A DNA stretch of 64,000 nt from Candidatus Giovannonibacteria bacterium (GCA_016176295.1 JACOXN010000005.1:2156-66155); one strand, 5' to 3'; shown: positions 9,971 through 63,301, counted from the first letter of the stretch. Numbers and translations: made by a program. The notes: generated by a model not told the origin, from the letters alone.

Positions 9971-9994
9971 GAATTGTGAATAACAAATCGAATT

Positions 9995-12031: not shown

Positions 12032-12063
12032 ATTTTTAGGACAAAATATGCTATAATTGGCGC

Positions 12064-12336: not shown

Positions 12337-12345
12337 GATTTATAT

Positions 12346-12963: not shown

Positions 12964-13081
12964 AATCATCGCTGATGTCGAGGGATTAAAAGGCTTTACA
13001 ATTAGTACAGGTAGATTTGACTTTGTTGCCGATTCATATAAAATAAGGAGTATATTCCTATTATTTAATTTTTATTAAAAT

Positions 13082-13643: not shown

Positions 13644-13688
13644 TTTTCGGCGGCGGAAATCAAACGGCTTTACAATTTGGGACGCTAA
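13644..13688 (+). pseudogene. Orphan 3' stub of a LamG-domain gene
   Basis: TTTTCGGCGGCGGAAATCAAACGGCTTTACAATTTGGGACGCTAA translates to FSAAEIKRLYNLGR*. The intact gene ends LSADEIKRLYNLGR*. Confidence 0.8.
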
Positions 13689-13744
13689 TATGTTGCGCTC
13701 TTCGTATCAATATGATACGATAAACCTATCTAAATGATACGAAT

Positions 13745-32181: not shown

Positions 32182-35100
32182 ATGAATAAACGACACAAAA
32201 TGGGAAGAAAAGTAACTTCTATTGTGTTGAGTTTGACAACCGGTCTTTGGTTGGTAGGCGGATCGCTTATGCCTTTCGTGGCACAAGCGCAGACTACGGC
32301 TGATCTTCAGGCGCAGATCACCGCTTTGCTTGCCCAGATCGCTGCACTTCAAGCTCAATTATCCGGTGGCGGAACAGTTTCATCAGCAGCTTGCACTTTC
32401 ACTCGCAACCTCACGGTAGGCTCAACGGGTGATGATGTGATGTGCTTGCAGAAATATTTGAACTCTGCCGGACATCAAGTTGCCGCAAGCGGAGCCGGTT
32501 CACCCGGCAGTGAGTCAAAATATTTTGGCTCTTTGACCAAAGCGGCAGTTGCGAAATGGCAGGCGGCCAACGGTGTTGCGCCGGCAGTCGGATATTTCGG
32601 CGCTATTTCACAAGCAAAATACGGTTCATTAGTGGCATCAGTTCCCGGAACTCCGGGCGTACCAGGCACACCAGCTCCGGTACCGGCTCCAGCCGGCACT
32701 TTGGCGGTAGCGGCGGGCACACAGCCTTCAGCTAGCTTGTTCCCGGGAAACGGAACTGCGACAGCCTCAAATGTTCCTTTCACAGTTTTGAGATTCACCG
32801 CTCCGGCCGCTTCGGACGTGACGGTCAACTCATTGGTTGTTGAAAGAACAGGTTTGTCCAGTGATGCGGCTTTCTCCAGCGTTGTTCTCTTGGACGAAAT
32901 GGGAGCACAGGTTGGAAACAGCAAAACTTTGAACTCGACTCACCAGGCAACTCTTACCGAGCCATTCGTAGTAAAAGCGGGCACAACCCGCACGATGACT
33001 TTGGCAGGAAACGCCGCGGATGAATCCAACTACGCAGGACAGGTTGCGTTCCTCACTTTGGTGAGCGTGAACTCTTCCCTTCCGGTAACGGGTTCATTAC
33101 CGATAACTGGCGCGGGCCACACGGTCAACGCTTCAGTGACTATCGGTTCAGTAACCATGGGAAGAGGTCCTCTCGACCCGGGTGACGCGAGCCCTTCAAA
33201 GAAAGTAGGCGACACGGCATACATTTTCTCGTCAGTTAAAATCACTGCCGGTTCAGCCGAGAAAGTTTACTTGAAATCGATCAGATGGAACCAGACCGGT
33301 TCCGCTTCCGCTTCGGACTTGGCTAACATCAAGACCTACGTGGACGGAACGGCCTATGACGCCGTAGTAAGTTCAGACGGCAAATATTACACTTCAGTTT
33401 TCGGTGACAACGCCGGAAAGGGAATCCTTATCGACAAAGGTTACTCAAAAGAAGTGTACATAAAGGGTGATATTGCCGGAGGTTCCGGACGTACCATCGA
33501 CTTCGACCTTGCGAAAAGGAGAGACATTCAGGTCGTGGGTGAAACCTACGGATACGGAATTACTCCTCCGCAAACCGGACTCACCGACCCGACTGACGAC
33601 ACAGCGGCTTTCAGCTCGACAGAAGACCCCTGGTACGATGCCGATGAGGTATCAGTGACCGGTGGTTCGATAACAGTTGCGAACTCCAACACAGTTCCGG
33701 CTCAGAACATTTCATCCAACTTGGCTGACCAGCCGTTGGGTGCCATGTTGGTAACCGTAAAAGGTGAGCCTATCTCAGTAGGAAGAATTGGATTCAACGT
33801 ATCCATCTTAAACGGTACAGCGGATGGAACAACTGGAAATGCTGATGTTAACGACTTAACCAATGTTACTTTGGTTAACTCTTCGGGAGCAGTCGTAGCC
33901 GGACCGGTTGACGGTTCAGCTGCCGATAGCGCTAATACTACTAGTGCCGGGCATGGTTCCGTAGTGTTCAGCGATACTATTACTTTCCCGGTGGGAGAGA
34001 ATATTTACTACCTGAAATCGAAGTTTGGTACAGACATTCCAAACAACTACACAATCCAAGCTTCCACAACCCCGAGTGCTGACTGGGCAACCGTAACGGG
34101 TACCGTTACGGGAGTCACCAGGACTCCTTCACCGACATCCGCTATCACTCTTAACCTGATGACCTTAAAGACCGGCGCATTGACGGTGAGCGTATCCTCA
34201 AACCCGATCGCTCAGAACGTTGTAGCCGGAAACCAAGGATTTACGTTTGCCAACTACATCTTCGACACGACTGCTTCAGGAGAAGATGTGAGAATGACCA
34301 GCGTACCGTTGGTTAACGGAGTAGCGGTGGGTTCCGCGACAGATCTTACGAGTTGTGCCCTCTATGACGGTGCGTCCACTGTAACTTCTTCCAAAGACCC
34401 GTCTTCAGCAGCTTCCACAACTTTGTTTACATTCACTAGCGGTGGATACACCTTTGCAAAGGGAACTTCCAAGACGCTTGCTCTGAAATGTAACATCGCA
34501 AGCGGCGCTACCGGTAAATACCTCTGGGGTATCGATGCTGCCCAGAATGCCGACTTCACGGGCGCTACCGGCCTTACTAGCGGACAGACAATTACCGAAA
34601 CGTTCAATGACGCCAACGGTCAATTGATGACTGCCACGAGCGGTGGTTCACTGGCTGTAGTGATTGACGCCGGAAGCCCGACATACACCATAGTAGCTCC
34701 CGGTCAAACTGTTGAATTGGCGAGAATAAAATTCTCGGCAACCAATGAAGACATTGATCTGAAGCGCGTGGCGTTTGAATTGAACGGTGTTGCCTCAAAT
34801 ACACCTGATAACTTGGTTAATCGCCAGATCACCTTACACACGACTGATGGAACCCAGATTGGAACCGCGGTCTTCCCGACGGGAGACTACGCGACTTCCT
34901 CGCTCTTGTCTACTGGCGCATTTTCAGTGCCGAGAGACGGTTCCAAAGTGCTAGTCGTGAAAGGTGTTATCGGAGGAATCTCAGTATCCGGCCCAATTAC
35001 CCGTTCCGGAGAGTTCCTCAAGGTTGACTACGATGCCGATTCCGATGGTCTTACCGACGGAACATACGGATCCGGGCTTTCATCGGGAACCAACATTACT

Positions 35101-35787
35101 CCTACCGGTTCTGACACAGCTTCAGACGGAGTCAGGATAATGAAGGCTTACCCGACAATGGCCAGGCTCAACATGACTTCCAGCTTGGTTAACGGTATCA
35201 ATCAGGTAATGCGCTGGAGTGTGACGGCAAACAACGGTGACGTTTCAGTTGCCAGGTTTACTATCCGCATGTCCACTACTTCGGTTAACGCAGCATCTCT
35301 GAACGTTTATGCTTTCTCCGACTCAGGATTTGGAAACCCAATAACCGTGTCTGGAAGAGCTGACGGTAGGTTGATGGAGACTGATAAGGATTTGAACACG
35401 AATAATGAGCCTACGACAGGAGACTTGGTTGTTGAGCCTACCACTTCCGCTAATGCAACAACGACTTTGACAATCTCATCAGGTCAAACGTTGTACTTTG
35501 CGGCGCAGGTCAACTTGACTAACGTTGACGCGACAGGTGATGCTACTTCGTTCCAGTTGCAAGGTGATGCGGCTTTCCCGGTTGCACACCAGGCTTATTT
35601 GCCAGGTGGAGGCCAGGTTGGAGAAATGACCCGGTATGCCAGCTTGCGTGGAATAACGGATGATGACTTCCTATGGTCACCGCTTTCCACAACAACTGCT
35701 GACTTGCTGACGAATGACTGGACCAACGGATTCAGAGTGACAGGTCTACCGACCTCGAACATGACTCCTCAAGTCTTGAATAAATAA
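32182..35787 (+). CDS. Large cell-surface protein with N-terminal anchor, coiled segment and peptidoglycan-binding domain (S-layer-like candidate)
   Basis: Signal/TM segment, then LQAQITALLAQIAALQAQL. The PG_binding_1-like motif is GDDVMCLQKYLNSAGHQV...YFGSLTKAAVAKWQAANGV. This is followed by a PGTPGVPGTPAP linker and about 1000 aa of Thr/Ser/Gly/Ala/Val-rich beta-type sequence. Confidence 0.8.
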   Translation: MNKRHKMGRKVTSIVLSLTTGLWLVGGSLMPFVAQAQTTADLQAQITALLAQIAALQAQLSGGGTVSSAACTFTRNLTVGSTGDDVMCLQKYLNSAGHQVAASGAGSPGSESKYFGSLTKAAVAKWQAANGVAPAVGYFGAISQAKYGSLVASVPGTPGVPGTPAPVPAPAGTLAVAAGTQPSASLFPGNGTATASNVPFTVLRFTAPAASDVTVNSLVVERTGLSSDAAFSSVVLLDEMGAQVGNSKTLNSTHQATLTEPFVVKAGTTRTMTLAGNAADESNYAGQVAFLTLVSVNSSLPVTGSLPITGAGHTVNASVTIGSVTMGRGPLDPGDASPSKKVGDTAYIFSSVKITAGSAEKVYLKSIRWNQTGSASASDLANIKTYVDGTAYDAVVSSDGKYYTSVFGDNAGKGILIDKGYSKEVYIKGDIAGGSGRTIDFDLAKRRDIQVVGETYGYGITPPQTGLTDPTDDTAAFSSTEDPWYDADEVSVTGGSITVANSNTVPAQNISSNLADQPLGAMLVTVKGEPISVGRIGFNVSILNGTADGTTGNADVNDLTNVTLVNSSGAVVAGPVDGSAADSANTTSAGHGSVVFSDTITFPVGENIYYLKSKFGTDIPNNYTIQASTTPSADWATVTGTVTGVTRTPSPTSAITLNLMTLKTGALTVSVSSNPIAQNVVAGNQGFTFANYIFDTTASGEDVRMTSVPLVNGVAVGSATDLTSCALYDGASTVTSSKDPSSAASTTLFTFTSGGYTFAKGTSKTLALKCNIASGATGKYLWGIDAAQNADFTGATGLTSGQTITETFNDANGQLMTATSGGSLAVVIDAGSPTYTIVAPGQTVELARIKFSATNEDIDLKRVAFELNGVASNTPDNLVNRQITLHTTDGTQIGTAVFPTGDYATSSLLSTGAFSVPRDGSKVLVVKGVIGGISVSGPITRSGEFLKVDYDADSDGLTDGTYGSGLSSGTNITPTGSDTASDGVRIMKAYPTMARLNMTSSLVNGINQVMRWSVTANNGDVSVARFTIRMSTTSVNAASLNVYAFSDSGFGNPITVSGRADGRLMETDKDLNTNNEPTTGDLVVEPTTSANATTTLTISSGQTLYFAAQVNLTNVDATGDATSFQLQGDAAFPVAHQAYLPGGGQVGEMTRYASLRGITDDDFLWSPLSTTTADLLTNDWTNGFRVTGLPTSNMTPQVLNK

Positions 35788-35836
35788 CCCGCCTCAGGCG
35801 GACAGGTCTAGCTTGCTTGTGACTTGCTAGCTTGAA

Positions 35837-35870
35837 TCAAAAGCCCCCTTTAAAGGGGGCTTTTGATATT
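35837..35870 (+). terminator. Strong rho-independent terminator of the surface-protein gene
   Basis: Perfect 30-bp palindrome TCAAAAGCCCCCTTTAAAGGGGGCTTTTGA followed by T-rich sequence. Confidence 0.85.
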
Positions 35871-35906
35871 GTGTTTAAAAAAACTCCGGTTTATAATTCA
35901 TCTACT

Positions 35907-36686
35907 ATGGAAACTGAGAAAAAAGAAGAAATATTGATGCTGGTTTCGGCATTAATGATAAGTTTTTTGGCTTTTTCTGCCGGTTACTTCATTTGGGGCG
36001 GTGGCAGACTATATTCGCCGAAGAATGCTGAGAGAACCGCAGAGGAACAAGAATTAGTGGAGACAATAAACGAAAACGGAGAATTGATCCTGGAAGAGGT
36101 AGAAAAGGCCGATTTACCGGTTCCGGATTTGGATAGAAAAGTGACAATAACGGCAAATCTTCCGGAAGATCAGAAAATAAAGATGACAGACAAAATAAAA
36201 GAAATATCCGGTATTTTGAAAAAAGATCCAACTTTGGCGGATTCATGGATAGAATTGGGAGGTCTTTATCAAGTGGCAGGAGATTACGAAGGCGCAGCTT
36301 TGGTCTGGGAATACGCCGGCGCCATCAAGCCGAAAAATTACATCTCGTTCAATAATTTGGGGTTTCTTTACCGCTATTATCTGAAGAATCCGCAGTTGGC
36401 GGAGAAGAACTTTTTGCGGGCGAGCGCCAACAAGCCGGATCTGGTGGCTAGTTATCGCGAACTTAGCGACCTCTACAGATATGATTTCAAGGCAAAATCC
36501 GGAGAGGCCGATGATATATTGCTGGCGGGCCTGGAAAAGAATCCGAACAACCTTGATCTGCTCATTTATCTGGCAGGCTACTATAGAGACACTGGAAACA
36601 ACGCAAAAGCCAGGAAATACTACGAAAAAGCCTTGTCATTGGACCCTGGCAATAGCGCGATTGCTAGGGAACTCCAGGAGCTATAA
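35907..36686 (+). CDS. Membrane-anchored TPR-repeat protein
   Basis: The start METEKKEEIL at 35907 is used because the track start 35832 would include the terminator. One TM segment, then TPR repeats (WIELGGLYQVAGDYEGAALVWEYA..., ARKYYEKALSLDPGN). Confidence 0.75.
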   Translation: METEKKEEILMLVSALMISFLAFSAGYFIWGGGRLYSPKNAERTAEEQELVETINENGELILEEVEKADLPVPDLDRKVTITANLPEDQKIKMTDKIKEISGILKKDPTLADSWIELGGLYQVAGDYEGAALVWEYAGAIKPKNYISFNNLGFLYRYYLKNPQLAEKNFLRASANKPDLVASYRELSDLYRYDFKAKSGEADDILLAGLEKNPNNLDLLIYLAGYYRDTGNNAKARKYYEKALSLDPGNSAIARELQEL

Positions 36687-45074: not shown

Positions 45075-46772
45075 ATGAAGTTGTCTAGTTTTGCTGTTTT
45101 TGCGGTTATGTTTTGTGTTCTTAGCTATACCGGAATCGCTTATTCGTCTGAAAAACCGGTCGAACTTTCGCTCGACATCGCAAAAGTGCAGTCGCGCCTT
45201 CCGGCTAAAGTTTTCGATGAGATATCCAAAATACCTTCCAAACCCCATTTTTTGCTGGGGCTGGAGCAGAAAACCGATGAATACGAGCAGATGCTTGAGC
45301 ATCGTAAGCTCTGGTCTACGGCTATGGAATTCTACGGCGATAATTACGCCGGAGTTATGGACAAGTCCGCTCCGGATTATCGGCTGGTTGGCAACAGGGC
45401 GCTACAGACCGTGCTTGAGGTTTCGGGAAAGAAAATTTCGATATTTTATACCCACCACATTTTTTCTGTCGACCAAATGTATACTTTTTGGTCGAGGCAA
45501 GGCGAGAAGAATTTGGCAGAATTTTCACCCTTTCACGATAAATTCAAAGCGCAGTGGGGAGTGGGCTCTTTGTCGGATTCCCAATGGGCCGATGTGAAAA
45601 GAGTGCTGGGTTGGGCTCAGTTCGAAGCGGTGAAGGAATACGTTAAATACACCATCGAAACCGCGGCCGCCAAAAACGTCCGAGACTACGCCAAAATTAA
45701 TCTTACTGAAGGCGTTTTACGCGCACGCGAAAAGCTTCTGGATGATCCCGATTACGGCAAAAAGCTCGACCAGCCACTGGCCGGTTCGGCGCAACTCAAA
45801 GTGAGCGATATTCTGCCCGTTCCTTACGCGCGTGCGAAAGATTTTTTGCCCGATGTTTTTATGGTGGGGCCCCACGGTTTCGGCGGAGGATTTGCCAACT
45901 GGAAAACTCCCGGAGCGGAGAGGTACGTGTCCGTGGATCTTTTGGGCATGATGTATGAGTACGTGGCCGGAGGAACATCAATTACTTCCCATGAATTTGT
46001 CCACACGAATCCCTATCTTCAGGGAACGCCCTTGGACATTTACTACGATCTTGAGATGTTCGCCAATTTGACCACAAGCGGTGTGCTAGGTTATCTTTTT
46101 CATCCGTACGATGCCGTGCTTCGTGACGAGGTTGATACATATTGGGGATACGATTTCAAAGAAGCCATCAGAAGAATGCGTCCCGGCGAATTTGGATTAA
46201 TTGATATCAGCCGCGCGGAATACCTGGCGCAGATCAAAACCGTTAAAGCAATAAAGGAAGAGCTCCTGCGATTCATAATGGACCCGAATGACGGATTTCT
46301 GATGCAATTCTATTCAGACCCGTATTTTTGGATCACGGTGAACACGAAATTTTGCGATACGTCCGCGGCTTTCAGAATAATGTTCGCTCTGCGCTATGAG
46401 CCTGCAGGTATTTTTGATCCGAACAAGAAGGATGAAAATGGCAACGTTATCTCTGCGTCTGTTCAGACAAAGCAGTGGCTGGACAAGGAAGAGGACGCGG
46501 GTCGCATTGCTCTTCTCGCCAAAAAAACTCTGGAAAAAACTGGAAGCCCTACAAAGTTTTTCAGTGATCTTTCAAAGGTGGAAGACATCGGCGGCATGTC
46601 CGTATGTCCGGTTAATTCGAGACTTTTCGAAATGAATGAAGCGGAACGGAAGCAATTTATCGCGACCGTGAATCCCGTCATCGAAAGTGCTAAAAGCGGA
46701 GATTGGGAAGCCAAGTTCACCCTGCTTCGAATATTCGGAAGTTCTCACGCGTTATTAAAGAGTGTGCATTGA
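45075..46772 (+). CDS. Secreted hypothetical protein with zincin-like HExxH...E motif
   Basis: Signal peptide MKLSSFAVFAVMFCVLSYTGIAYS. HEFVH at 45990-46004, followed about 20 aa later by DLEMFANL (a possible third ligand). Confidence 0.65.
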   Translation: MKLSSFAVFAVMFCVLSYTGIAYSSEKPVELSLDIAKVQSRLPAKVFDEISKIPSKPHFLLGLEQKTDEYEQMLEHRKLWSTAMEFYGDNYAGVMDKSAPDYRLVGNRALQTVLEVSGKKISIFYTHHIFSVDQMYTFWSRQGEKNLAEFSPFHDKFKAQWGVGSLSDSQWADVKRVLGWAQFEAVKEYVKYTIETAAAKNVRDYAKINLTEGVLRAREKLLDDPDYGKKLDQPLAGSAQLKVSDILPVPYARAKDFLPDVFMVGPHGFGGGFANWKTPGAERYVSVDLLGMMYEYVAGGTSITSHEFVHTNPYLQGTPLDIYYDLEMFANLTTSGVLGYLFHPYDAVLRDEVDTYWGYDFKEAIRRMRPGEFGLIDISRAEYLAQIKTVKAIKEELLRFIMDPNDGFLMQFYSDPYFWITVNTKFCDTSAAFRIMFALRYEPAGIFDPNKKDENGNVISASVQTKQWLDKEEDAGRIALLAKKTLEKTGSPTKFFSDLSKVEDIGGMSVCPVNSRLFEMNEAERKQFIATVNPVIESAKSGDWEAKFTLLRIFGSSHALLKSVH

Positions 46773-46832
46773 CACTCTTTTTTATATTCTTTAAGCTGGA
46801 TATAGGCACGAGTACTTTGAAAGGGCACATTT

Positions 46833-48395
46833 ATGTTTAAAGTATGGGCGTTTTTTTGGCTTGCTATTACTTTGGTTTTTGGCAGCTCCTGCGCGCTTCC
46901 ATTTGTCATCGCGGGGCGTGAGATTGCGACTGATCAGAAAGGCGAATTTAAATACACGAGGCGCCAGGCTAAAGTCGCGGTTGCGAGGGCACAACTTCAT
47001 ATAATCGGCAAATTCGACAAGGAAAAAGGTATGTGGACATTGCACCCCGAATCTATCGGAGTTGAGGATGCCAAAAAAGTGTTGGAAAACCAGGCAAAAT
47101 CGGCCGACGCTCTCCTTAGCTATCGGAATATGCAGGATTCTGATTTTATCGACTGGTTTAAAGGTTTCCGAGAGGGTCTGCTTAAGGAAGAGCAGATAGC
47201 CTTGTGGATCCTGCGGCGTCTCCAATATGTCAGTTCGTACAACCAGTTCGTGGATATGGTAGGCGAAATGCCGCCGGAAATGCGCGGCAAAGAATACGAA
47301 TATTTCTTTGCGTCCGGCAGGAAATCCTACTCGATTCGCATGATCTATCCTCTGGCAGACATCACCAAGATTCCGTTTTCCGCCGCGTATGTGGAAAACG
47401 CGAAACGTGACGGTACACTCAAACTGGTGGATTCATTCACTGTCACGAGCGATCGCAAATTCGGCAAGAAAGAGGTTAATATCCACGACCCGAACGATTT
47501 TTCGTGGAAAGAAGTGCAGAACGGATGGGTTATCAATTCTTACCGCATTCTTCCGGATAAAGAAAAACCACTCGAGAACAATGTGCATTATATTGAAGTG
47601 TTCAGAACTGACGGCAGCCGCGCGCTTGAACCAAAACCCGCTGTTAAAGGTTTTATGGCCTCCGGCGAGTCCAAGGTTTCTGTGTTTGTCATAGATTACG
47701 ACAGGTCAGGAAAGGACGGTTTTGGAAGTCCGGACGAGATTTATAAAATTTTTTCCGGAATTTCGACCGGGTCTGAGATCTACGACCTCACATTTTACCG
47801 TGGAAAAGTCTTGTTGTCTTTGTTTGACCCGCCCAATGCCAGTATGAAACCGGAGCGGCGCAAGCCTCCGGAACGTCCCGTTTACACGGAGATCGTGAAA
47901 ATGGGAGAACTCCAACTGGACATGTGGGAAAAAGGCTCCTGGGCACTGCCGGCTGTCGATTTCCGTTCCTTGAAGGAGAATGTTTCGCTTGTTTTTGACA
48001 AAGCCAAAACTCCCGCGGAAATGCAGCTTGAAAAAGAAGGCTTAAGCCGGGTGAAGAGCATCAAGCAGGAGTACAGCAAGGACAATCAGACGGTCGTCAT
48101 CAAGTACTGGCTCCCGAAGCAGGAGTATGCTGAAAGGAATATCACCTATAATAACAGCGCTTTTGGGGATACTATCCGCTTGCGTAGGCGAGGCGGTCAG
48201 GAGGAAACCGGCGAAGCGGGGTACTTCGGAAAACGAGTAACCGCCATTGATTATTTTTTTGCCGGACGATGGTTCAGGATAGTTGATGAGGACGGGGATG
48301 GCGTTTTCGAAAAGCGGAAGACCATTTCTTCTCCCGTCGAGGTTTCTTTCGAACCTGAGTCCGTCAAATTAAATTTTGACATGTACGATGAATAA
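46833..48395 (+). CDS. Secreted/lipoprotein-like hypothetical protein with DxDxDG-type loops
   Basis: Signal peptide ending LVFGSSC. Acidic loops DYDRSGKDGFGSPDE and DEDGDGVFEKRK. No other motif. Confidence 0.65.
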   Translation: MFKVWAFFWLAITLVFGSSCALPFVIAGREIATDQKGEFKYTRRQAKVAVARAQLHIIGKFDKEKGMWTLHPESIGVEDAKKVLENQAKSADALLSYRNMQDSDFIDWFKGFREGLLKEEQIALWILRRLQYVSSYNQFVDMVGEMPPEMRGKEYEYFFASGRKSYSIRMIYPLADITKIPFSAAYVENAKRDGTLKLVDSFTVTSDRKFGKKEVNIHDPNDFSWKEVQNGWVINSYRILPDKEKPLENNVHYIEVFRTDGSRALEPKPAVKGFMASGESKVSVFVIDYDRSGKDGFGSPDEIYKIFSGISTGSEIYDLTFYRGKVLLSLFDPPNASMKPERRKPPERPVYTEIVKMGELQLDMWEKGSWALPAVDFRSLKENVSLVFDKAKTPAEMQLEKEGLSRVKSIKQEYSKDNQTVVIKYWLPKQEYAERNITYNNSAFGDTIRLRRRGGQEETGEAGYFGKRVTAIDYFFAGRWFRIVDEDGDGVFEKRKTISSPVEVSFEPESVKLNFDMYDE

Positions 48396-48478
48396 AAAGG
48401 GAACACCAGTTCCCCTTTTTTATTTTTTCTCCCCCTGTGTTATGCTGATTTCAGCGTATTTTGAAATAGGGTTGCGTT

Positions 48479-49267
48479 ATGAAGCTTTTATTTTTGCTTC
48501 TTATAAGTGTTTTGTTGGCGGTTTTTGCCGCGCATGCGTTCGCAGGAAAGCGCGAAGACGGCATGAAGCAGGTCGACCGCGCCCTGGTAGAAGTGAAATC
48601 CACCTGCCTCTATACGGTAAAGTCGGTCGGCGAGGAAGGATCGGTTGTCCTCTATTCCGAAATAGCCACAAAATTAGGAATGGGATTTTTCACGGATTAT
48701 GCGATAAACGCCCCCGGTGAAGACAGCTATACCTTGTTTTCTTCCGCTCATATTTTTGTTTGTGACCGTGAATATTTTTCACAGATATTGTTGGAAAACC
48801 AATTTACCGAGGGGGCCATCCAGCTTGAAAATAAACTGGAAAAGGTCGAGATAAAATACGGCGCGGTCTGGTACGAAGCCGTTGTTAGTAAATTTGACTC
48901 TGAAAAAGAATTTGCCTGTCTTTCCATGGCTCTTCCCTCCGGCATCAAGCCTTATTCTCTGCCTCTTCTTCCTCAGAACAACGGATTATATGCCGTTGAC
49001 ACCGAAGTGAGGGCCAGAGGTAAAATGAGTTTCAAAGAAAACGGCTTGATGCGTCTTGTAAAAGGGCCCATCGAACATTTTCAGGATAATTTTTTCCGCT
49101 TTGCGGCCCCCGGTTACCACGGAATGTCGGGATCTCCGGTGGTTCTCTGGCGTAAAGACAAATATTATGTCATCGGTATCGTGGCCCGGAAATTCCAAAA
49201 AGATGATGAAACCATTAATACGACTCTTGTCACTGATCTGGATTTTTTAAATAAACTCCCAAAATAA
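48479..49267 (+). CDS. Secreted trypsin-like (S1/Trypsin_2-type) serine peptidase candidate
   Basis: Signal peptide MKLLFLLLISVLLAVFAAHAFA. His block FSSAHIFV. Ser block GYHGMSGSPVV (49121-49138). Confidence 0.65.
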   Translation: MKLLFLLLISVLLAVFAAHAFAGKREDGMKQVDRALVEVKSTCLYTVKSVGEEGSVVLYSEIATKLGMGFFTDYAINAPGEDSYTLFSSAHIFVCDREYFSQILLENQFTEGAIQLENKLEKVEIKYGAVWYEAVVSKFDSEKEFACLSMALPSGIKPYSLPLLPQNNGLYAVDTEVRARGKMSFKENGLMRLVKGPIEHFQDNFFRFAAPGYHGMSGSPVVLWRKDKYYVIGIVARKFQKDDETINTTLVTDLDFLNKLPK

Positions 49268-49339
49268 TCCCTTAACGGGGTTTTTTCTTTACACGCCTAA
49301 ATTTTGTGTAACCTGAAAATTATGATAAAATACGTTTAA

Positions 49340-51523
49340 ATGTCTCGAAAGAAAAAACAGAAAGAATCATGGTCGAGGGACCTCTCTGACGAAACCAAAC
49401 ACTCCATTTGGGCGATATTAGCTTTTGTGGTTTCTTTGATATTGGCACTGGCCTATTTCGGGAAAGCGGGTCTAGTGGGGGACTCAATTCAGCGAGCTCT
49501 TGAGTACGTTTTTGGCAAAGGTTTTTTTCTGGTTCCACTAATCTTTTTTTTGGGTGGGCTTTCTTTTTTGGTCTCTTCGGGGGCGCATCTTGTGGCCACC
49601 ACTATTTTCGGCGGCCTTTTTTTTCTTTTGGGGTCGCTCGGGTTCGTGGACGTGCTTTTCGGTTCGTACACCGCCGGACGGGCGGGTTTTTTGATGTCCT
49701 ACCCTTTTATGAAGCTTTTTGATTTTTGGCCCAGTGTCATCGTTTTTTCGGCCCTTATTGTAGTGTCGCTCCTGATAATGCTCAATGCTTCTCTTAAATT
49801 TAAACGGTCCGAAAAGGAAGAAAAACTTAAGATAAATGAAAAGCTTGGCGCGCAGTCGCCACGGGAAAATGAGGAGAATAAGGAAGAGGAAGATGAAGAG
49901 AACGAAGAAGAAAAAGATGATGAGGAAGAAAAACCGGAAAAGATGCCGGCGCTGATGCCTAAGCTGCCTTTCGGCTCGAAAAAACAAGCGCCGAAACTTC
50001 CCAAGCCGGTCTTTGCCAACTATACTCCGCCGCCTCTTGATCTTCTGGAAGACGACCGCGGCAAGCCCTCCTCCGGCGACATCAAAGCCAATGCTAATAT
50101 TATCAAGCGTACGCTCGGCAATTTCGGGATTGATGTCGAGATGGCCGAAGTGAATGTGGGGCCTTCCGTGACGCAGTATACTTTGCGGCCGGCTGAGGGC
50201 ATCAAGCTCTCAAGAATTCTCGCGCTGCAGAATGACCTTGCTCTCGCATTGGCGGCACATCCGTTGCGTATTGAAGCACCAATACCGGGGAAATCGTTGG
50301 TGGGTATCGAGATACCGAACCGGTCCATAGCGCTCGTGGGTTTGAGGTCGCTTTTATCTTCCGAGGACTTCGCGCATGCGCCTCCGCTCACCTTTACTTT
50401 AGGAAAGGACGTCGCCGGAAAGTCGGCTTTCACGGACCTTGCGAAAATGCCCCATCTTTTGATAGCTGGAGCCACGGGGTCCGGAAAATCTATCGCCATG
50501 CATGTTATCATTACGAGCTTTCTTTTTAAAAACTCTCCGGAGTTTTTAAGATTTCTGATAATAGACCCCAAACGCGTGGAGCTCACGGTTTATAACGACA
50601 TCCCGCATTTATTGACGCCGGTCATTATCGACGCGAAAAAGACCGTGCACGCATTGAACTGGGCCGTAAAAGAGATGGAAAGAAGATATATCAAACTTTC
50701 CGAGTTGGGGACGCGTGATATAGGCTCTTACAATACCGAGGTTGCAGAGCGCAAAGATGAGGAATTGAGCCCCTTGCCAAACATTGTGATCGTTATAGAC
50801 GAGCTGGCCGACCTTATTGCGTCGTACCCCAGGGAAATAGAAAGCTCGATAGTGAGACTTGCCCAGATGTCGCGCGCGGTCGGAATTCATTTAATCGTCG
50901 CTACGCAAAGGCCGTCGGTCGAGGTTATCACAGGTTTGATAAAAGCGAACATAACCGCAAGAATGGCTCTTCAAGTCGCATCACTGGTTGATTCACGCAC
51001 TATATTGGATATGTCGGGAGCGGAGAAACTTCTCGGCAACGGAGACATGCTTTATGTGGCCGGAGATACTTCGAAACCCAGGCGTGTGCAGGGCGCCTTT
51101 ATAACAGAAAAAGAAATAAAGAGAATAGTTTCTCATGTGTCGCACCAGGCGGAAGGCGTGACGCTCGAATCCATTGATCTTGCAGCCCAGAAGAATTCCG
51201 GCGGGGGAGACGACGGAGAGGAGGTTGATGATGACCTTTACGAAGAGGCCAAGGAATTGGTCATGGAGACGCAGAAAGCCTCGGCTTCTTATTTGCAGAG
51301 GCGTTTAAGAGTAGGATACGCGAGAGCCGCCAGGCTTCTGGACATTTTGGAAGAGAATGGAATTATCGGCCCGGGAAGTGGCGCAAAACCGCGCGAAGTT
51401 TATGCTCGGCCGGATCCCACCAAGGAGAAATTCGCCACAATCGCAAAAGAGAACGAGTTGAATAGCAATAACGATGACGACGAGGACGATGACACAAAAA
51501 CCCCTTACACCAATTTCGGTTAA
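49340..51523 (+). CDS. ftsK: DNA translocase FtsK/SpoIIIE
   Basis: N-terminal TM segments and an acidic/Lys-rich linker. Walker A IAGATGSGKS. Gamma-domain wHTH ASASYLQRRLRVGYARAARLLDILEENGIIG. Confidence 0.93.
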   Translation: MSRKKKQKESWSRDLSDETKHSIWAILAFVVSLILALAYFGKAGLVGDSIQRALEYVFGKGFFLVPLIFFLGGLSFLVSSGAHLVATTIFGGLFFLLGSLGFVDVLFGSYTAGRAGFLMSYPFMKLFDFWPSVIVFSALIVVSLLIMLNASLKFKRSEKEEKLKINEKLGAQSPRENEENKEEEDEENEEEKDDEEEKPEKMPALMPKLPFGSKKQAPKLPKPVFANYTPPPLDLLEDDRGKPSSGDIKANANIIKRTLGNFGIDVEMAEVNVGPSVTQYTLRPAEGIKLSRILALQNDLALALAAHPLRIEAPIPGKSLVGIEIPNRSIALVGLRSLLSSEDFAHAPPLTFTLGKDVAGKSAFTDLAKMPHLLIAGATGSGKSIAMHVIITSFLFKNSPEFLRFLIIDPKRVELTVYNDIPHLLTPVIIDAKKTVHALNWAVKEMERRYIKLSELGTRDIGSYNTEVAERKDEELSPLPNIVIVIDELADLIASYPREIESSIVRLAQMSRAVGIHLIVATQRPSVEVITGLIKANITARMALQVASLVDSRTILDMSGAEKLLGNGDMLYVAGDTSKPRRVQGAFITEKEIKRIVSHVSHQAEGVTLESIDLAAQKNSGGGDDGEEVDDDLYEEAKELVMETQKASASYLQRRLRVGYARAARLLDILEENGIIGPGSGAKPREVYARPDPTKEKFATIAKENELNSNNDDDEDDDTKTPYTNFG

Positions 51524-51527
51524 TTTT

Positions 51528-51878
51528 ATGATAAAACGTGTATCGGCAGTGACGCTTCGCAATTGGATATTTATCGGACTTTTTGTAATTGCTGCGGCGT
51601 ATTTCTCGTATCAAGCGGGAGATGTGCTTTTTTCTCCGGCTCTCGTCATATTTGAGCCGCAAAACGGCGTATTATTCAACAGGACCGAGATAGAAGTGGC
51701 GGGACGCACTGACCCCGGGCTTGAGGTACGGGTAATGGGCAAAGAAATGAAAGCGGATGAGAACGGCAATTTTAAAGTGATTGTATTTTTATCTCCAGGT
51801 TACAACGCCATCGGAGTCTCGGTTAAAGACCATTTTGATAACGAAACCAGGAAAGTGCTGAAAGTGGTAGTGAAATGA
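51528..51878 (+). CDS. Membrane-anchored hypothetical protein with Ig-like beta domain
   Basis: Start MIKRVSAVTL at 51528, just after the ftsK stop. One TM segment, then EIEVAGRTDPGLEVRVMGKEMKADENGNFKVIV. Confidence 0.6.
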   Translation: MIKRVSAVTLRNWIFIGLFVIAAAYFSYQAGDVLFSPALVIFEPQNGVLFNRTEIEVAGRTDPGLEVRVMGKEMKADENGNFKVIVFLSPGYNAIGVSVKDHFDNETRKVLKVVVK

Positions 51879-51931
51879 TTTTAATATGTGTCAAGCTTCC
51901 ATTTTAATAAATAAGGAATTAATATAAATTC

Positions 51932-52984
51932 ATGGCAAAACAAAAAGAAGTCAGCCCGAGGCTGACCAGCCCTGGGCTGGAAAAAATGACAAAAGAAAAT
52001 CGTTGGAAAGAAGTCGATGCGGCGGTAAAAGACATTCAGTCGCGTTTCGGCGAAGGTATTCTGATGAAAATGGGTGAGATGCCCAAAGTAGACGTGGATG
52101 TAATACCCACGGGTTCACTGGGTCTTAACATGGCGCTGGGCGTAGGCGGTGTTCCCCGCGGAAGAATAATCGAAATTTACGGTCCTGAATCTTCGGGAAA
52201 AACCACGTTGGCGCTCCACATTGTTTCCGAAGCGCAGAAGAAAGGCGGTATTTGCGCTTTCGTTGACGCGGAGCATGCGCTGGACCCGGAGTACGGCAGG
52301 CGCCTCGGAGTAAAGATCGATGATCTGTTGATCTCGCAGCCCGATACCGGAGAACAGGCATTGGATGTAGTGGAATCACTGGTGCGGTCCGGACGGATAG
52401 ATGTTATCGTTGTGGATTCGGTTGCGGCTCTCACCCCCAAAGCTGAAATAGAGGGCGATATGGGCCAGCAGCACATGGGGCTGCAAGCGCGCCTTATGTC
52501 CCACGCATTGCGGAAACTGACGGCCATAGTCGCCAAATCAAAAACAGTGGTCATATTCATAAACCAGGTGAGGATGCAGATCGGAATAATGTTCGGAAAC
52601 CCCGAGACGACCACAGGAGGAAAAGCGCTTAAATTTTATTCTTCCGTGAGGATAGAGGTGCGCCGCGCGGCACAGATAAAAAAAGGCGAAGAAATAATCG
52701 GGAATCGCGTAAAAGCCAAAGTGGTAAAAAATAAAGTTGCCCCGCCTTTCCGGGCGACAGAGTTCGATATTCTTTACAATCAGGGAATTTCCTACGAAGG
52801 TGAACTTCTGGGGCTGGGAGAAAAGTACGAAGTAATCAAAAAATCAGGCGCCTCATATGCTTTTGGCAGCGTATCACTGGGGAGGGGTTATGACTCCGCG
52901 AGGGCCAAGCTTCAGGAAGACAAAAAATTAGCGCACGAATTGGAAGCTGCCATCAGAGAGGCGGCTAACAAAGCAACGGAGTAA
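51932..52984 (+). CDS. recA: Recombinase RecA
   Basis: [15 protein letters not shown] Walker [10 protein letters not shown] and the L2 region [21 protein letters not shown]. Confidence 0.97.
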
Positions 52985-52989
52985 ATAAC

Positions 52990-53199
52990 TTATCTCGTGG
53001 TGTAAGGGGCGAGACCCAGAAACCGGGCGCGTTTTATCGCTTCCGCGAGTTTTCTTTGGTGCAAAGCGCAAACGCCCGAGCGGCGTTTTTTCACAATCTG
53101 CGCCTGGGGTGTCATGAACTTGCGGATAACTTCCTGCGATTTGTAATCTATCGCCTTAATGTTAGCCGCGCAAAAGTAGCATTGTTTTGATAGTTCCAT
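52990..53199 (-). CDS. rpsR: 30S ribosomal protein S18
   Basis: CYFCAANIKAIDYKSQEVIRKFMTPQAQIVKKRRSGVCALHQRKLAEAIKRARFLGL. Confidence 0.93.
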   Translation of the reverse strand: MELSKQCYFCAANIKAIDYKSQEVIRKFMTPQAQIVKKRRSGVCALHQRKLAEAIKRARFLGLAPYTTR

Positions 53200-53204
53200 A
53201 TGTT

Positions 53205-53657
53205 TTAAAAAGGTATATCTTCTGGTTTAATTTCGTCTTCGGGGTATTCGACCGTAGCTATTTCCTCCTCCGCCTGGCTGCCAGCGGTGCTCCCGGCGTG
53301 TTCGGGCGGTTTGTAATTTCCGGCGCCTGAGTTTCTGGGGCCCATCTGCATTTTTTCTCCAACTATTTCAGTTTTATATTTCTTGACCCCATCTTGCCCC
53401 TGCCATGAACGGGTTTGTATCCTTCCCTCAACCATTACGAGAGAACCTTTTTGCAGGTATTGTTTGGTGATTTCCGCCAATTTTCCGAACATTACTACAT
53501 TGTGAAATTCCGTTTGTTTTTGCTGCGAGCCGTCGTTTCCTTTCCACATGCGGTTCGTTGCCATCCCAAAATTAACTACCGGCTGGCCCGAGGGGAGGGA
53601 ACGCAGCTCCGGGTCGCGTGTCATGTTGCCGATAAGGATAACTTTATTCAGATTCAT
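53205..53657 (-). CDS. ssb: Single-stranded DNA-binding protein
   Basis: MNLNKVILIGNMTRDPELR OB-fold start and an acidic C-terminal tip EDIPF. Confidence 0.93.
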   Translation of the reverse strand: MNLNKVILIGNMTRDPELRSLPSGQPVVNFGMATNRMWKGNDGSQQKQTEFHNVVMFGKLAEITKQYLQKGSLVMVEGRIQTRSWQGQDGVKKYKTEIVGEKMQMGPRNSGAGNYKPPEHAGSTAGSQAEEEIATVEYPEDEIKPEDIPF

Positions 53658-55289: not shown

Positions 55290-55889
55290 TTATAATAAGT
55301 CGAAATATTGCTTAAGATGTAATTCATTATCAATTGTATCGGCAACGATGTAACGCACATACGGTCGCAATGAAAAGAATTCTATCACAAAATCAACCTC
55401 ATCTCTACATTCGAATGGATGCACAAAAACACTTTTTTGAAATTTATAACAGCCCATGTTTTTAAGCAGTTTGGCTATCGCATCGCGTGCCTTTTTGTGT
55501 TTTTCAGGAATATCAAAAAGTATTATGCGCCACTTTTTATCCCAATTTTCCATTTTTTTGATTCTTATGTTTTCAAGATCGTAAGTCAAAGCTTTATTTT
55601 TACCATTGCTTGTAAGAATAATGGTGACTGTTCCGTCTTTGTTGTTCTTAATGTCCAACAACCTGTTTTCGTATAAATTTCTGATGCAATTGTACAAAAT
55701 CCGCCGGTTTATTTTTTCCCACTCTTTTGGCAGATCTTTAAGCACACGCAGTTTCTTTTTGGGGGAGTAAGCTAGAGTTAGTGAAGCGCCAGCCAGAAGC
55801 AGTAGTAAAATTTTTTGAGACGTGGTGCCCAATGAACCAAAATTTCTCATAATTATTAAAAATGTAACTCTATACTTTAAATTAGTCAA
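55290..55889 (-). CDS. PaaX-like regulator candidate (N-terminal wHTH-like region plus Cas2-like ferredoxin-fold domain)
   Basis: WDKKWRIILFDIPEKHKKARDAIAKLLKNMGCYKFQKSVFVHPF matches the PaaX_C/Cas2-like W..W.lv.fDIPe...R..lr..L...Gf..lq.Svw..P pattern. Confidence 0.55.
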   Translation of the reverse strand: MTNLKYRVTFLIIMRNFGSLGTTSQKILLLLLAGASLTLAYSPKKKLRVLKDLPKEWEKINRRILYNCIRNLYENRLLDIKNNKDGTVTIILTSNGKNKALTYDLENIRIKKMENWDKKWRIILFDIPEKHKKARDAIAKLLKNMGCYKFQKSVFVHPFECRDEVDFVIEFFSLRPYVRYIVADTIDNELHLKQYFDLL

Positions 55890-55921
55890 ATTAAACAGCT
55901 ATAGCTGTTTAATTTGACTAA
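55882..55921. repeat. 40-bp perfect palindrome at the 5' boundary of the IS30 remnant
   Basis: TTAGTCAAATTAAACAGCTA|TAGCTGTTTAATTTGACTAA, exact. Confidence 0.95.
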
Positions 55922-56832
55922 AAATTAGAAAGCGAGAATGTGAAATGGGAATGAATCGGTCGAGCATTTCAAGAGAAATTAACCAAAACAAAGATTCTGA
56001 CGGAATTTACCGGGGCGGCCATGCGCATAAACGGGCAATGGAGAGGAGAAAACAAGGAAAGGCGGCTTTCAAAAAGATCGGGAAAGATCCTAAACTTCGC
56101 AAGTATATTATCCGCAAACTCAAAAAGTATTGGTCTCCGGAACAGATTGCCGGCAGGCTAAAACGGAAATATAAAACAACCGTGGTATGCCAGGAAACAA
56201 TATACCAATTCATCTACGAAGAGCATCCGGATTTGGTGAAGTATTTGAGGCGTCAGAAAAATAAATATAGGAGAAAAAGAGGCACTAAAGCTCGTATGCA
56301 ATGGAGTAAGGCCTTGAAAATCAGAAGAATTGGGGAAAGACCGGGGGTTGTTGAGACAAGAAAACGCATTGGAGACTGGGAGGGCGATACCGTTGTCGGA
56401 AAAGAAAAGAAGCAAAGGATACTCACATATGTAGAGAGGAAGAGCGGTTTTGGCATGGCAAACAAACTTGATGTGGTCACTGCGGAAATTGTGCAAGAAA
56501 AAACCGCAATGCGATTTAGGGCATTGCGGTCGAAGGCAAGACGAACATTGACGAGAGATAACGGTCCGGAATTTGGAGATTACGATCAAGATCTCGAAGA
56601 GCGTACCAAAATGAAAGTATACAGAGCAACCCCTTATCGATCATGCGAACGCGGCACGAATGAAAACTGGGATGGTCTGCTCAGGCAATTCTTTCCGAAG
56701 GGTATGGTGTTTGCTACTATTACTCAGTACCGTGTTGATCAAGTTGTCCGCTTGCTCAACAACCGGCCGAGGAAACGGCTGGACTATGCAACGCCGCGAG
56801 AGAGATTTAGAGAATGTTGCAATTCAGACTAG
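55902..56832 (+). mobile_element. IS30-family insertion sequence remnant (5'-truncated; no matching right inverted repeat found)
   Basis: It contains the transposase ORF below. The sequence downstream of 56832 shows no reverse-complement match to the left-end sequence. Confidence 0.6.
55945..56832 (+). CDS. IS30-family DDE transposase, lacking the first N-terminal HTH
   Basis: RSSISREINQN (HTH_38 remnant), DWEGDTVVGK, LTRDNGPEF and ERGTNENWDGLLRQFFPKG (DDE triad context). The in-frame upstream sequence runs only to a stop at 55915-55917, inside the palindrome. Confidence 0.85.
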   Translation: MGMNRSSISREINQNKDSDGIYRGGHAHKRAMERRKQGKAAFKKIGKDPKLRKYIIRKLKKYWSPEQIAGRLKRKYKTTVVCQETIYQFIYEEHPDLVKYLRRQKNKYRRKRGTKARMQWSKALKIRRIGERPGVVETRKRIGDWEGDTVVGKEKKQRILTYVERKSGFGMANKLDVVTAEIVQEKTAMRFRALRSKARRTLTRDNGPEFGDYDQDLEERTKMKVYRATPYRSCERGTNENWDGLLRQFFPKGMVFATITQYRVDQVVRLLNNRPRKRLDYATPRERFRECCNSD

Positions 56833-61698: not shown

Positions 61699-62424
61699 TT
61701 ATTTTTTACTTGCGAAGACCTGCGTTTTCGTTGCCGCGGTTTTTTCTTCGCTCATTAAGAAATCAACGAAGATCATAATGTAAAGCATCAAAAATCCGAA
61801 AGCCATGGTTATGTAAGACGCAAGCAGCGGCATGAAACCATGCGCCCAGATTACGCCGATTCCGCCCGTCAAGCCTCCAATTACGAATGTTACTGAGAAT
61901 AGGGTTTTTTTAACAACTGCTTTTTGACTTTCCGTTTTGGATATGAAAAGAAAAATTCCGGTGATGACGGCCAGGGGCGTTATAAGCAGCGAAAAGAATA
62001 AATTGAACGGAAATAAAATATTCCAATTTATTACTCCGTATTGCAGAATATCGGGCATGGGCAAATACATGAGTTGCGCCGTTACATAGAAGATAGTCAG
62101 AGCGGGCATCAAGTAAAAAATTACCCTCTCAGCTCGCATCGCGCCCCATGCCCTCAAGGCTACCCTTGATGATTGAACCAATCCCCACACAGTGAATACT
62201 ATGCCAACTACCACAGAAAATCCTAAAACAGAGCTCTTTGTTGTTATGAGCACAGGCACGCCATCCCATAAGAAACCAAGTCCAGCCCCAAATCCAACAT
62301 GCACAAACATAAGGCTGTATTCATTGCCTGTTTTTTTATAACTTTTGAGTGCCCGAAAACCGAACCATATGCATGCTATGGCATTAAAAACGTATAGCGC
62401 TGAAGATACCGGAATATAGCCCAT
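61699..62424 (-). CDS. Polytopic integral membrane protein, function unknown
   Basis: About 7 TM segments. The start MGYIPVSS at 62424 is preferred over the track start 62493, because a TTGAGA-18-TATAAT promoter lies on the minus strand with the -10 box 6 nt before this ATG. Confidence 0.65.
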   Translation of the reverse strand: MGYIPVSSALYVFNAIACIWFGFRALKSYKKTGNEYSLMFVHVGFGAGLGFLWDGVPVLITTKSSVLGFSVVVGIVFTVWGLVQSSRVALRAWGAMRAERVIFYLMPALTIFYVTAQLMYLPMPDILQYGVINWNILFPFNLFFSLLITPLAVITGIFLFISKTESQKAVVKKTLFSVTFVIGGLTGGIGVIWAHGFMPLLASYITMAFGFLMLYIMIFVDFLMSEEKTAATKTQVFASKK

Positions 62425-62430
62425 AAAACT

Positions 62431-62460
62431 ATTATACCTCAATTTAAAAAAAACTCTCAA
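62431..62460 (-). promoter_or_regulatory. Putative promoter (leaderless layout) of the membrane-protein gene
   Basis: Minus strand: TTGAGA (62460-62455), 18 nt, TATAAT (62436-62431), 6 nt, ATG (62424). Confidence 0.5.
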
Positions 62461-62701
62461 CGCGACTTTGGTCTTAATTATTATGAATGGCAAAAGCGCG
62501 GACGGAACTAACTACCGAATTCTATAGATAAAAATAGACAACCCACCCCGAGCAATCGGGGGTTTTGTTTTTACCCGAATAAGTCACTTGGCGGCTAAGC
62601 CGCCAAGTGCTGTAAATATGCAAATAAATACTATGTGCTATAAATCGCGAACATAACGGCTAAAATTCAACCCTGAAGCGCATCACTCGCCTTTGAACTA
62701 A

Positions 62702-62778
62702 ACATACCCGCAGGCCTGTCTACCGGCAGGCAGGTACGCTAGGAATATTAACAGCCTAGATTACCAAAACGGGTATGT
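62702..62778. repeat. Structured palindromic element (outer 9-bp stem enclosing two hairpins)
   Basis: ACATACCCG (62702-62710) pairs with CGGGTATGT (62770-62778). The inner stems are GCCTG...CAGGC and CTAGG...CCTAG. The core 62715-62734 is related to 14914-14933. Confidence 0.6.
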
Positions 62779-62805
62779 ACCACCACATTACACGCAGAAG
62801 GGAAA

Positions 62806-62985
62806 ATGGAGATTACCCTTAGAGATGGAGTATTGTATATCTTTGCTCAAGCAACTGATATGAATACGCACGAAGATCACAATGCACTAATGAAAATCAT
62901 CAGAGAAATAAAAGGGCGATCATATCAAGTAGAAGTAGGAGTGTTATCTGATTTTGCGCTAATATTGACCAGTAAAAATTCTTAA
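62806..62985 (+). CDS. Possible 59-aa hypothetical protein
   Basis: MEITLRDGVLYIFAQATDMNTHEDHNALMKIIREIKGRSYQVEVGVLSDFALILTSKNS*, read by hand. GAAGGG lies upstream, and a hairpin plus T-run follows the stop. Confidence 0.35.
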   Translation: MEITLRDGVLYIFAQATDMNTHEDHNALMKIIREIKGRSYQVEVGVLSDFALILTSKNS

Positions 62986-63301
62986 TCGTTATACAAGCGG
63001 CCCTAAAACGCCCGCTTTTTTATTTACTTCGGTAATTCCACGGTCGTCTGAGATACTGTAGTAGATTTTTTCGGCAAATTTGACATAAGCATATGGCCAT
63101 GCAAAAACAATCGTGCATGAGGCCGAAAAGGTCTTATTGGGGAAATTCCGTAAACATTTGGGAAAAAATGATTTCTTGAAAATTATTGCCAATTTGTCGC
63201 CGGGCTCGCTGGAGTCCCGATTTTTTTATATCTCAATAATCACGGGCAGCGCCACCCAGTAAAGCGCAGACGCCACGGGGCAAGTCGGTTGGGCATTCGG
63301 A

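Follow-up and report, generated by a model that had tools for sequence, protein, structure and literature searches.

What do three consecutive genes for exported proteins do in a reduced genome, and do they act together? We addressed this question in a 64,000-nt stretch (hereafter the window) of a Candidatus Giovannonibacteria genome from the Parcubacteria of the Candidate Phyla Radiation (CPR), in which a gene cluster occupies positions 45075-49267. Bacteria of this kind cannot do without other cells and scavenged nutrients, yet their surface enzymes are, to our knowledge, almost entirely uncharacterised. A literature search on proteases of Parcubacteria or Giovannonibacteria turned up no relevant work. 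The cluster comprises only three long open reading frames (ORFs), with locus tags obtained from exact matches in a protein collection:

45075-46772, + strand: ORF1 (HYT01_01345, 565 aa), putative catalytic subunit of a gene pair, according to the ORF call, its homologs and an AlphaFold2 (AF2) model
46833-48395, + strand: ORF2 (HYT01_01350, 520 aa), predicted lipoprotein partner of ORF1, according to its homologs, the pairing and an AF2 model
48479-49267, + strand: ORF3 (HYT01_01355, 262 aa), predicted secreted trypsin-fold (Trypsin_2-like) protein and facultative neighbour, according to its family profile and motifs

The original prediction had placed three signal-peptide proteins between rpoC and ftsK and interpreted them as one secreted proteolytic module. 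The position is borne out by the ORF calls, by the intergenic gaps (71, 60, 83 and 72 nt from the rpoC side to the ftsK side) and by the annotation of both flanks. The unit is different: ORF1 and ORF2 form an obligate pair and not part of a triplet. This pair, which had not been described before, is a mobile surface module restricted to certain lineages and marked by a strong catalytic signature. We read it, with a probability of roughly 55%, as an extracytoplasmic zinc hydrolase of two subunits tethered to the membrane, probably a new zincin-like peptidase, with an optional neighbouring serine protease.

The pairing carries most of this conclusion. In each of the 16 non-redundant cellular loci (collected partly by a metagenome scan with the ORF2 alignment), and also in one phage, a homolog of ORF1 is followed directly by a homolog of ORF2 on the same strand. 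The named sources of these homologs are Giovannonibacteria, Lloydbacteria, Tagabacteria and other Parcubacteria, and the pair occupies at least four genomic contexts:

After rpoBC and before ftsK: the window, L001, L010
Divergent from dprA, and before pth, a signal peptidase gene and hisS: L005, L013, L015, L017
Downstream of comEC: L003, L008, L012
Other surroundings: L021, L024, L027

The overlap between the two genes amounts to 4 nt in L005, L008, L010 and L027, to 1 nt in L009 and to 7 nt in the phage, which suggests translational coupling of the kind typical of coupled subunits. One locus departs from the simple arrangement. L009 (9953-15133) encodes a long-form ORF1 (570 aa, 56% identity) without an ORF2 of its own, followed by a diverged short ORF1 (497 aa, 22%) and a diverged ORF2 (539 aa, 30%), so that a single ORF2 appears to serve both ORF1 paralogs. 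In addition, the pair lies beside differing genes of DNA uptake and recombination according to lineage, namely dprA (divergent, upstream), comEC (upstream) and ftsK-recA-ssb (downstream; window 49340-53657, L010 and L011); these adjacencies amount to approximately three independent synteny events and may be either coincidence or a hint of a link with competence.

The features of ORF1 on which its assignment depends are as follows:

45075-45146, + strand: Sec-type signal peptide of ORF1, MKLSSFAVFAVMFCVLSYTGIAYS, predicted from the N-termini of 47 homologs
45990-46055, + strand: signature of ORF1, HEFVHTNPYLQGTPLDIYYDLE, in which H306, E307, H310, N312, L315, Q316 and E327 constitute a putative zinc site and general base, from their invariance
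46757-46790, + strand: hairpin with a T-run across the ORF1 stop codon, terminator- or attenuator-like (minimum free energy (MFE) -11.8 kcal/mol, z -3.8)

A total of 47 full-length homolog clusters were identified for ORF1 (38-58% identity), every one of them unnamed and free of Pfam matches. At their N-termini, a basic n-region precedes a hydrophobic core and a cleavage site of the AxA type, and by these features ORF1 carries a Sec signal peptide. The string HEFVH occupies residues 306-310, with 16 residues between its second His and the downstream E327. Only 12 residues are invariant over 49 sequences (the 47 homologs and two paralogs of 22-25% identity, L009 12021-13514 and L027 923-2383), and 7 of them fall within the block HExxH-x-N-xx-LQ-x10-E. 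Because H306, E307, H310, L315, Q316 and E327 are unchanged over 17-49 homologs, down to 18-25% identity and including the phage copy, the conservation argues that the motif is not a chance occurrence; the zincin-type motif proposed at the outset is thus under strong constraint. The strings quoted in the original prediction (HEFVH in ORF1, SSAHIF and GMSGSP in ORF3) were all found at their places. Two cysteines of ORF1, C427 and C511, are likewise invariant and present in the phage copy, which fits an extracytoplasmic, disulfide-bonded protein.

The AF2 model of ORF1, built on the family alignment, reached a mean predicted local distance difference test (pLDDT) score of 82 and a predicted template modelling (pTM) score of 0.80. 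It places HExxH in a helix (residues 302-311, with 10-residue pLDDT blocks of ~94-95) and E327 at the opening of another (326-334), with strands at 238-288 before them. HExxH and E327 therefore lie on predicted helices that follow beta-strands, and the modelled order of secondary structure is that of a gluzincin active site and compatible with zincins. Together with the outcome of the searches described below, in which ORF1 showed no significant homology to gluzincins and zincin folds came up only below the threshold, the protein is best treated as a candidate new zincin-like family.

ORF2 provides the partner, and its features are as follows:

46881-46892, + strand: lipobox G-S-S-C of ORF2, with the invariant Cys20 as predicted lipid-attachment residue
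47694-47735, + strand: acidic loop 1 of ORF2, DYDRSGKDGFGSPD, residues 288-301, from family conservation
48285-48314, + strand: acidic loop 2 of ORF2, DEDGDGVFEK, residues 485-494, candidate Ca2+ site in a beta-hairpin, from conservation and the AF2 model
48399-48424, + strand: intrinsic-terminator-like hairpin GGGAAC-ACCA-GTTCCC with a T-run, just past the ORF2 stop (MFE -10.3 kcal/mol, z -3.2)

All three proteins had been assigned plain cleavable signal peptides. Export holds for all of them, but ORF2 has a lipoprotein signal instead (lipobox GSSC, Cys20). Cys20 is invariant in the 32 full-length homolog clusters of ORF2 (42-56% identity, no Pfam match), the family lipobox reads [LVF]-[SAG]-[AG]-C and the window sequence is FGSSC. 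Lipoboxes (LSAC, LGGC, VAGC, LTGC and others) were present in 31 of the 32 homologs, in the phage copy (LTGC) and in the diverged copies (VAGC, LAGC), and the copy in L027 gave a weak match to LPAM_1. Since lipoprotein signals with an invariant Cys20 extend over the whole family, ORF2 is predicted to be a lipoprotein anchored in the membrane rather than secreted freely. In most ORF2 homologs a second Cys follows the lipobox Cys at a distance of 9-10 residues (consensus SACAxPFxxACR); the window protein (46833-46925, residues 20-31) has Gly there (CALPFVIAGRE).

The AF2 model of ORF2 (pLDDT 79.5, pTM 0.55) shows a helical N-terminal region followed by two beta-rich regions. Comparison of its profile with PDB sequences found nothing, Foldseek of the model against the PDB gave no match at E<=0.001, and searches against Pfam, NCBIfam and PHROGs returned noise only. 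The earlier statement that neither ORF1 nor ORF2 belongs to a named family was upheld, as Pfam, NCBIfam, PDB sequence and PDB fold searches all lacked a significant match. The two DxDxDG-type loops ascribed to ORF2 fared unequally. Loop 2 (D485-E-D-G-D-G490-V-F-E493) is a strict DxDxDG-xx-E loop with D485 and F492 invariant and conservation of 90% or more at G488, D489, G490, E493 and K494, and it lies between the predicted strands 479-484 and 492-498; it thereby combines the downstream acidic ligand, the position between structural elements and the conservation expected of such loops. Loop 1 is just DxDx[ES]G-like: it reads DYDRSG here, with a family consensus of DxDxEG, and in it D288, Y289 and G296 are invariant and D290, P300 and D301 at least 90% conserved. 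Both loops probably bind Ca2+, judging from sequence. Given the strict co-occurrence, the frequent 4-nt overlap and the lipobox, we favour for ORF2 the role of a stoichiometric membrane-anchoring or adaptor subunit rather than that of an inhibitor.

The pair is also found outside bacteria. When the ORF1 model was compared with predicted viral structures by Foldseek, one strong match was obtained (A0A3Q9R5M1, E 1.4e-17, TM-scores 0.54/0.63), and a tblastn search of 50,697 phage records found Thermus phage YS40_Isch alone. In this phage, two proteins annotated as hypothetical correspond to the pair: PGDDIFCJ_00065 (AZU97695.1, 474 aa) is a homolog of ORF1 (hhalign probability 99.8%, E 7e-30) and PGDDIFCJ_00066 (AZU97696.1, 445 aa) a homolog of ORF2 (98.8%, E 1.2e-16). 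The two genes stand in the same order as ORF1 and ORF2, overlap by 7 nt and have no protease neighbour. The former product carries a signal peptide, both ORF1 cysteines and HEMMHAQPTLQ...DVE, that is, the whole motif except N312, which is Gln; the latter carries the lipobox LTGC and both acidic loops (loop 1 DTDKPEDYGFGLPD, loop 2 DSDGDGTFDK). Both are shorter than their window counterparts, and the first ~150 residues of ORF1, which hhalign left unaligned, may be missing. YS40_Isch is a lytic myovirus with ~87% identity to YS40 (PMC6452258). The two genes are the only ones in their stretch without a 'similar to YS40_xxx' note. IMG/VR scans with the ORF1 alignment and the phage protein revealed no relatives, and neither did a plasmid search. 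Because the pair is present in a Thermus phage in addition to CPR bacteria, it is, as judged from these sequences, a self-contained, horizontally transferred module. Transfer from bacterium to phage appears the likelier direction, because the CPR copies are surrounded by core genes (rpoBC, ftsK, recA, hisS), keep their synteny and do not stand out in GC content, and because the pair is very rare in phages.

The third gene belongs to a family of its own, with the following features:

48749-48751, + strand: H91 of ORF3 (SSAHIF), from the family alignment
48908-48910, + strand: E144 of ORF3, in the column of the triad Asp, from the family alignment
49127-49129, + strand: S217 of ORF3 (GMSGSP), from the family alignment
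49266-49290, + strand: weak hairpin with a T-run past the ORF3 stop (MFE -6.6 kcal/mol, z -0.9, indistinguishable from shuffled sequences)

A word-indexed search with ORF3 retrieved ORF3 itself alone, and 24 distant relatives, mostly of ~260-300 aa, came out of an exhaustive search with HMMER (24 representatives among 1.84 billion). Nineteen of the 20 aligned relatives matched Pfam Trypsin_2 at E<=0.01 (best E 6.8e-10), which supports the proposed membership in a family of trypsin-fold peptidases; ORF3 itself scored 19.8 bits, under the gathering cut-off of 27.6. Within the family (n=20), the His and the Ser of GxSGxP are each conserved in 19 members, the triad Asp in 17, and two Cys (C43, C95) are invariant. 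ORF3 may thus be regarded on sequence grounds as a trypsin-fold protein for which activity is plausible but not assured, possibly with a Ser-His-Glu triad. Matches of ORF3 to TIGR04549 (E 0.028) and of its signal peptide to V-ATPase were dismissed as noise. Separately, a giant 'calcium-binding protein' of Pseudomonas tructae (P0091, WP_165392183.1, 2883 aa) matches residues 76-137 of ORF3 in eight stretches (E 1.2e-10), suggesting a repeat unit similar to the half-barrel at the N-terminus of ORF3-family proteins.

These features suggest the following mechanism. ORF1 would be exported via Sec, with cleavage of its signal peptide, and would bind a metal, most likely Zn2+, through H306, H310 and E327; E307 would serve as general base, and the bonds cut would most likely be peptide bonds. 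ORF2 would be exported in turn, lipidated at Cys20 and anchored to the outer face of the cell membrane, where it may bind ORF1 at a ratio of ~1:1, holding an otherwise soluble enzyme at the cell surface and/or presenting its substrate, with Ca2+ probably held by the acidic loops. The two genes would move horizontally as a self-contained module, and ORF3 would be secreted separately as a trypsin-fold serine protease outside this core. Our leading guesses for the substrate are cell-envelope or host-surface proteins, which would imply remodelling, or exclusion in the phage, and environmental or host-derived proteins, which would imply peptide scavenging. A bolder version, which we put forward tentatively and consider improbable, is that the pair constitutes a mobile two-component surface protease system, composed of a new zincin family and an obligatory Ca2+-binding lipoprotein and common to episymbiotic CPR bacteria and Thermus phage, that cuts envelope or host-surface proteins such as pili, S-layer and receptors to control cell-cell or phage-cell contact.

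Several observations weigh against our interpretation of the pair as a zinc peptidase with an optional serine protease beside it. ORF1, all 47 homologs and the diverged and phage copies gave noise only, with nothing at E<=1, against Pfam, NCBIfam and PHROGs, and PDB sequence searches found nothing with the ORF1 profile, whether taken in full, cut to its core (residues 232-372) or broadened with phage and diverged copies. The best match of the full-length ORF1 model in a Foldseek search of the PDB had an E of 0.23, with none at E<=0.001, and hhalign of the ORF1 core against the catalytic domain of E. coli PepN returned a probability of 2.6%. Below the threshold, zincins did appear in the Foldseek lists, both for the PDB (IRAP, E 2.2; SPRTN, E 9.4) and for BFVD (a poxvirus metalloprotease, a phage AR9 zincin and enhancin VEF-2, E 2-4). 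As ORF1 has no significant similarity to any characterised zincin, its assignment as a zincin draws on motif, invariance and predicted secondary structure. The window pair, moreover, is 60 nt apart with a hairpin and T-run between its genes, and coupling is not evident here. As for the serine protease, ORF3 carries Glu144 in the column in which 17 of the 20 family members show the triad Asp, and genes of its family occur in the absence of the pair in L031, L033 and L034.

The competing view closest to the original prediction takes the three genes as a single operon for secreted proteolysis: the metalloprotease and the serine protease would cooperate or form a cascade, and ORF2 would be their inhibitor, chaperone or adaptor. 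It draws its strength from the genes downstream of the pair. A same-strand gene for a signal-peptide Trypsin_2 protein follows ORF2 directly in the window, L010/L020, L013, L017 and L027, that is, in 5 of ~16 lineages with three flanking contexts and with pairs as distant as ~25% identity (L027); the downstream genes of L010, L013, L017 and L027 exceed the Pfam gathering score, within +/-6 kb of the pairs, Trypsin_2-like genes were found at no other position, and the closest relative has an S41 peptidase in the same slot. The five downstream proteases, however, are barely or not alignable with each other and not recognisably orthologous, with true ORF3-family orthologs after the pair in the window and L010/L020 only, and ~10 lineages as well as the phage have the pair without a protease neighbour. 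In the closest relative, a major facilitator superfamily (MFS) transporter and the S41 peptidase take that place. ORF3-family genes also occur without the pair and often have company of their own: a small secreted protein (~133-144 aa, no Pfam match) is encoded directly upstream of the ORF3-family gene in L030 (1-435), L033 (6619-7050) and L034 (4479-4880), with S41 peptidase genes adjoining in the latter two. These small proteins are 31-39% identical to each other and absent from the window. The intrinsic-terminator-like hairpin after ORF2 and the near-identical contigs L019 (1-4793) and L010 (8407-13199), which are 99.98% identical up to 17 nt inside the ORF3-family gene and unrelated beyond, also speak against a three-gene operon. 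In sum, the co-occurrence check returned the ORF1-ORF2 pair and no conserved block of three, and an operon of all three genes is unlikely. Because the downstream proteases are not recognisably orthologous, the pair lacks a protease in many lineages and in the phage, the ORF3 family occurs without the pair and a terminator-like hairpin intervenes, ORF3 is on sequence evidence a facultative neighbour, which shares the theme of exported proteolysis and stands outside the core machine. Three details of these loci are recorded here for completeness. The small secreted protein could be a partner or inhibitor of the ORF3-family protease; the 144-aa gene of L030 and the 536-aa gene of L031, considered as possible relatives of ORF2 or ORF1, were ruled out by searches with hidden Markov models; and the split between L010 and L019 may reflect either a chimera of metagenome assembly or variation between strains whose breakpoint falls exactly on the ORF2/ORF3 junction.

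A different objection concerns the substrate, namely that ORF1 is a metal-dependent hydrolase or binder acting on a non-protein target such as peptidoglycan or another envelope polymer, in envelope remodelling possibly tied to DNA uptake. The lack of homology between ORF1 and any peptidase family would be explained in this way, the proximity of the pair to dprA, comEC or ftsK-recA-ssb in different lineages would acquire a meaning, and carriage by a lytic phage would fit an envelope-directed activity. We nevertheless regard it as doubtful, since HExxH with a Glu 17 residues past the second His is the classic arrangement of gluzincin peptidases, the neighbour pattern is a post hoc one with few independent events, and no nuclease or muramidase motif was seen. 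That the pair is primarily an accessory of phages or mobile elements, serving superinfection exclusion or receptor destruction, with domesticated or prophage-borne copies in CPR bacteria, seems very unlikely. Phage-encoded lipoproteins are known exclusion factors, and the two genes look like an insertion in YS40_Isch; yet only one of the 50,697 phage records contains them, IMG/VR pattern scans and plasmids yielded none, and integrases, att sites and phage structural genes were consistently absent around the CPR copies as seen so far, whose core-gene setting, conserved synteny and unremarkable GC content make transfer from bacterium to phage more economical. A final alternative, that unrelated genes for exported proteins just happen to share a variable slot between rpoC and ftsK, can be derived from the varying mixes of pair, ORF3 family, S41 peptidase, MFS transporter and small secreted protein that Giovannonibacteria hold in this slot. 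As an account of the cluster it is extremely improbable: it is untenable for ORF1 and ORF2, which always occur together, including outside the slot and in the phage, and viable for ORF3 alone.

The remainder of the window contains further features around the cluster. Upstream lie genes for SecF, rpoB and rpoC (the latter two homologous to Pfam-annotated genes in L001), and downstream those for FtsK, a small immunoglobulin (Ig)-like membrane protein and RecA (FtsK and RecA by Pfam). The small membrane-anchored protein with its Glucodextran_B-like (Ig-like) domain, at 51474-51878 directly after ftsK, keeps this order with ftsK in L001, L010, L011, L030 and L031, and the annotated start of its gene overlaps the end of ftsK. 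A class A RNase P RNA was matched at 5093-5637, where the full 367-position model extends over 545 nt and sizeable insertions are implied. At 55290-56832, 6 kb downstream of the cluster, a PaaX_M/Cas2-like domain protein on the - strand adjoins an integrase-like gene with helix-turn-helix and rve domains, maybe the remnant of a mobile element. A 1201-aa protein at 32182-35787, with PG_binding_1 near its N-terminus as sole Pfam match, may be another large uncharacterised envelope protein, and is followed by a tetratricopeptide repeat protein at 35832-36686. Patches of low GC content (0.37-0.40) occur at 6001-10000, 12001-14000 and 62001-64000, compared with ~0.47 elsewhere in the window.

Among known systems, the gluzincins (MEROPS clan MA(E), including thermolysin of M4 and aminopeptidase N of M1) offer the nearest parallel to ORF1, with HExxH on a helix, a downstream Glu on the next helix and a preceding beta-sheet. 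In M1 and M4, ~18-19 residues separate the second His from the Glu, compared with 16 in ORF1. The hhalign comparison with E. coli PepN sets the conserved GGFAN of ORF1 opposite the GAMEN edge-strand motif and HEFVH opposite HEYFH, without significance. Unlike gluzincins, ORF1 has its own signature HExxHxNxxLQ, a length of ~565 aa with large unique helical regions and an obligatory adjacent lipoprotein partner, and it lacked significant sequence or fold similarity to them in any test. ORF3 resembles Pfam Trypsin_2 (PF13365) and the PA clan in its TAGHV-like SSAHIF, its GxSGxP Ser block, its signal peptide and a Cys four residues past the His; its score under the gathering threshold, Glu144 in place of the triad Asp and its small, very divergent family set it apart from typical members.

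Two further systems are analogies of function, with no homology to the genes studied here. MIB-MIP of Mycoplasma is a tandem of a surface binder and a protease in reduced genomes, and is like the pair in being a two-gene surface module with a non-catalytic partner beside a protease; MIP, however, is a serine protease, and its substrate, immunoglobulin, is irrelevant to groundwater CPR bacteria. The cascade of S. aureus, which leads from aureolysin to SspA (V8) and on to SspB with its inhibitor SspC, brings together a zinc metalloprotease, a trypsin-fold protease and a small accessory protein outside the cell, and is the analogy behind the three-gene model; here, the linkage of ORF3 is facultative and ORF2 is a predicted 520-aa lipoprotein, not a small inhibitor. 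Unlike all of these, 00065 and 00066 of phage YS40_Isch are true homologs of ORF1 and ORF2, and they stand without a trypsin-like neighbour. For nutrient scavenging or interaction with a host, the pair thus offers a concrete candidate that can be put to the test, and probably a new peptidase family, and its homologs in a cultivable Thermus phage provide a tractable route to a protein pair otherwise confined to uncultured bacteria.

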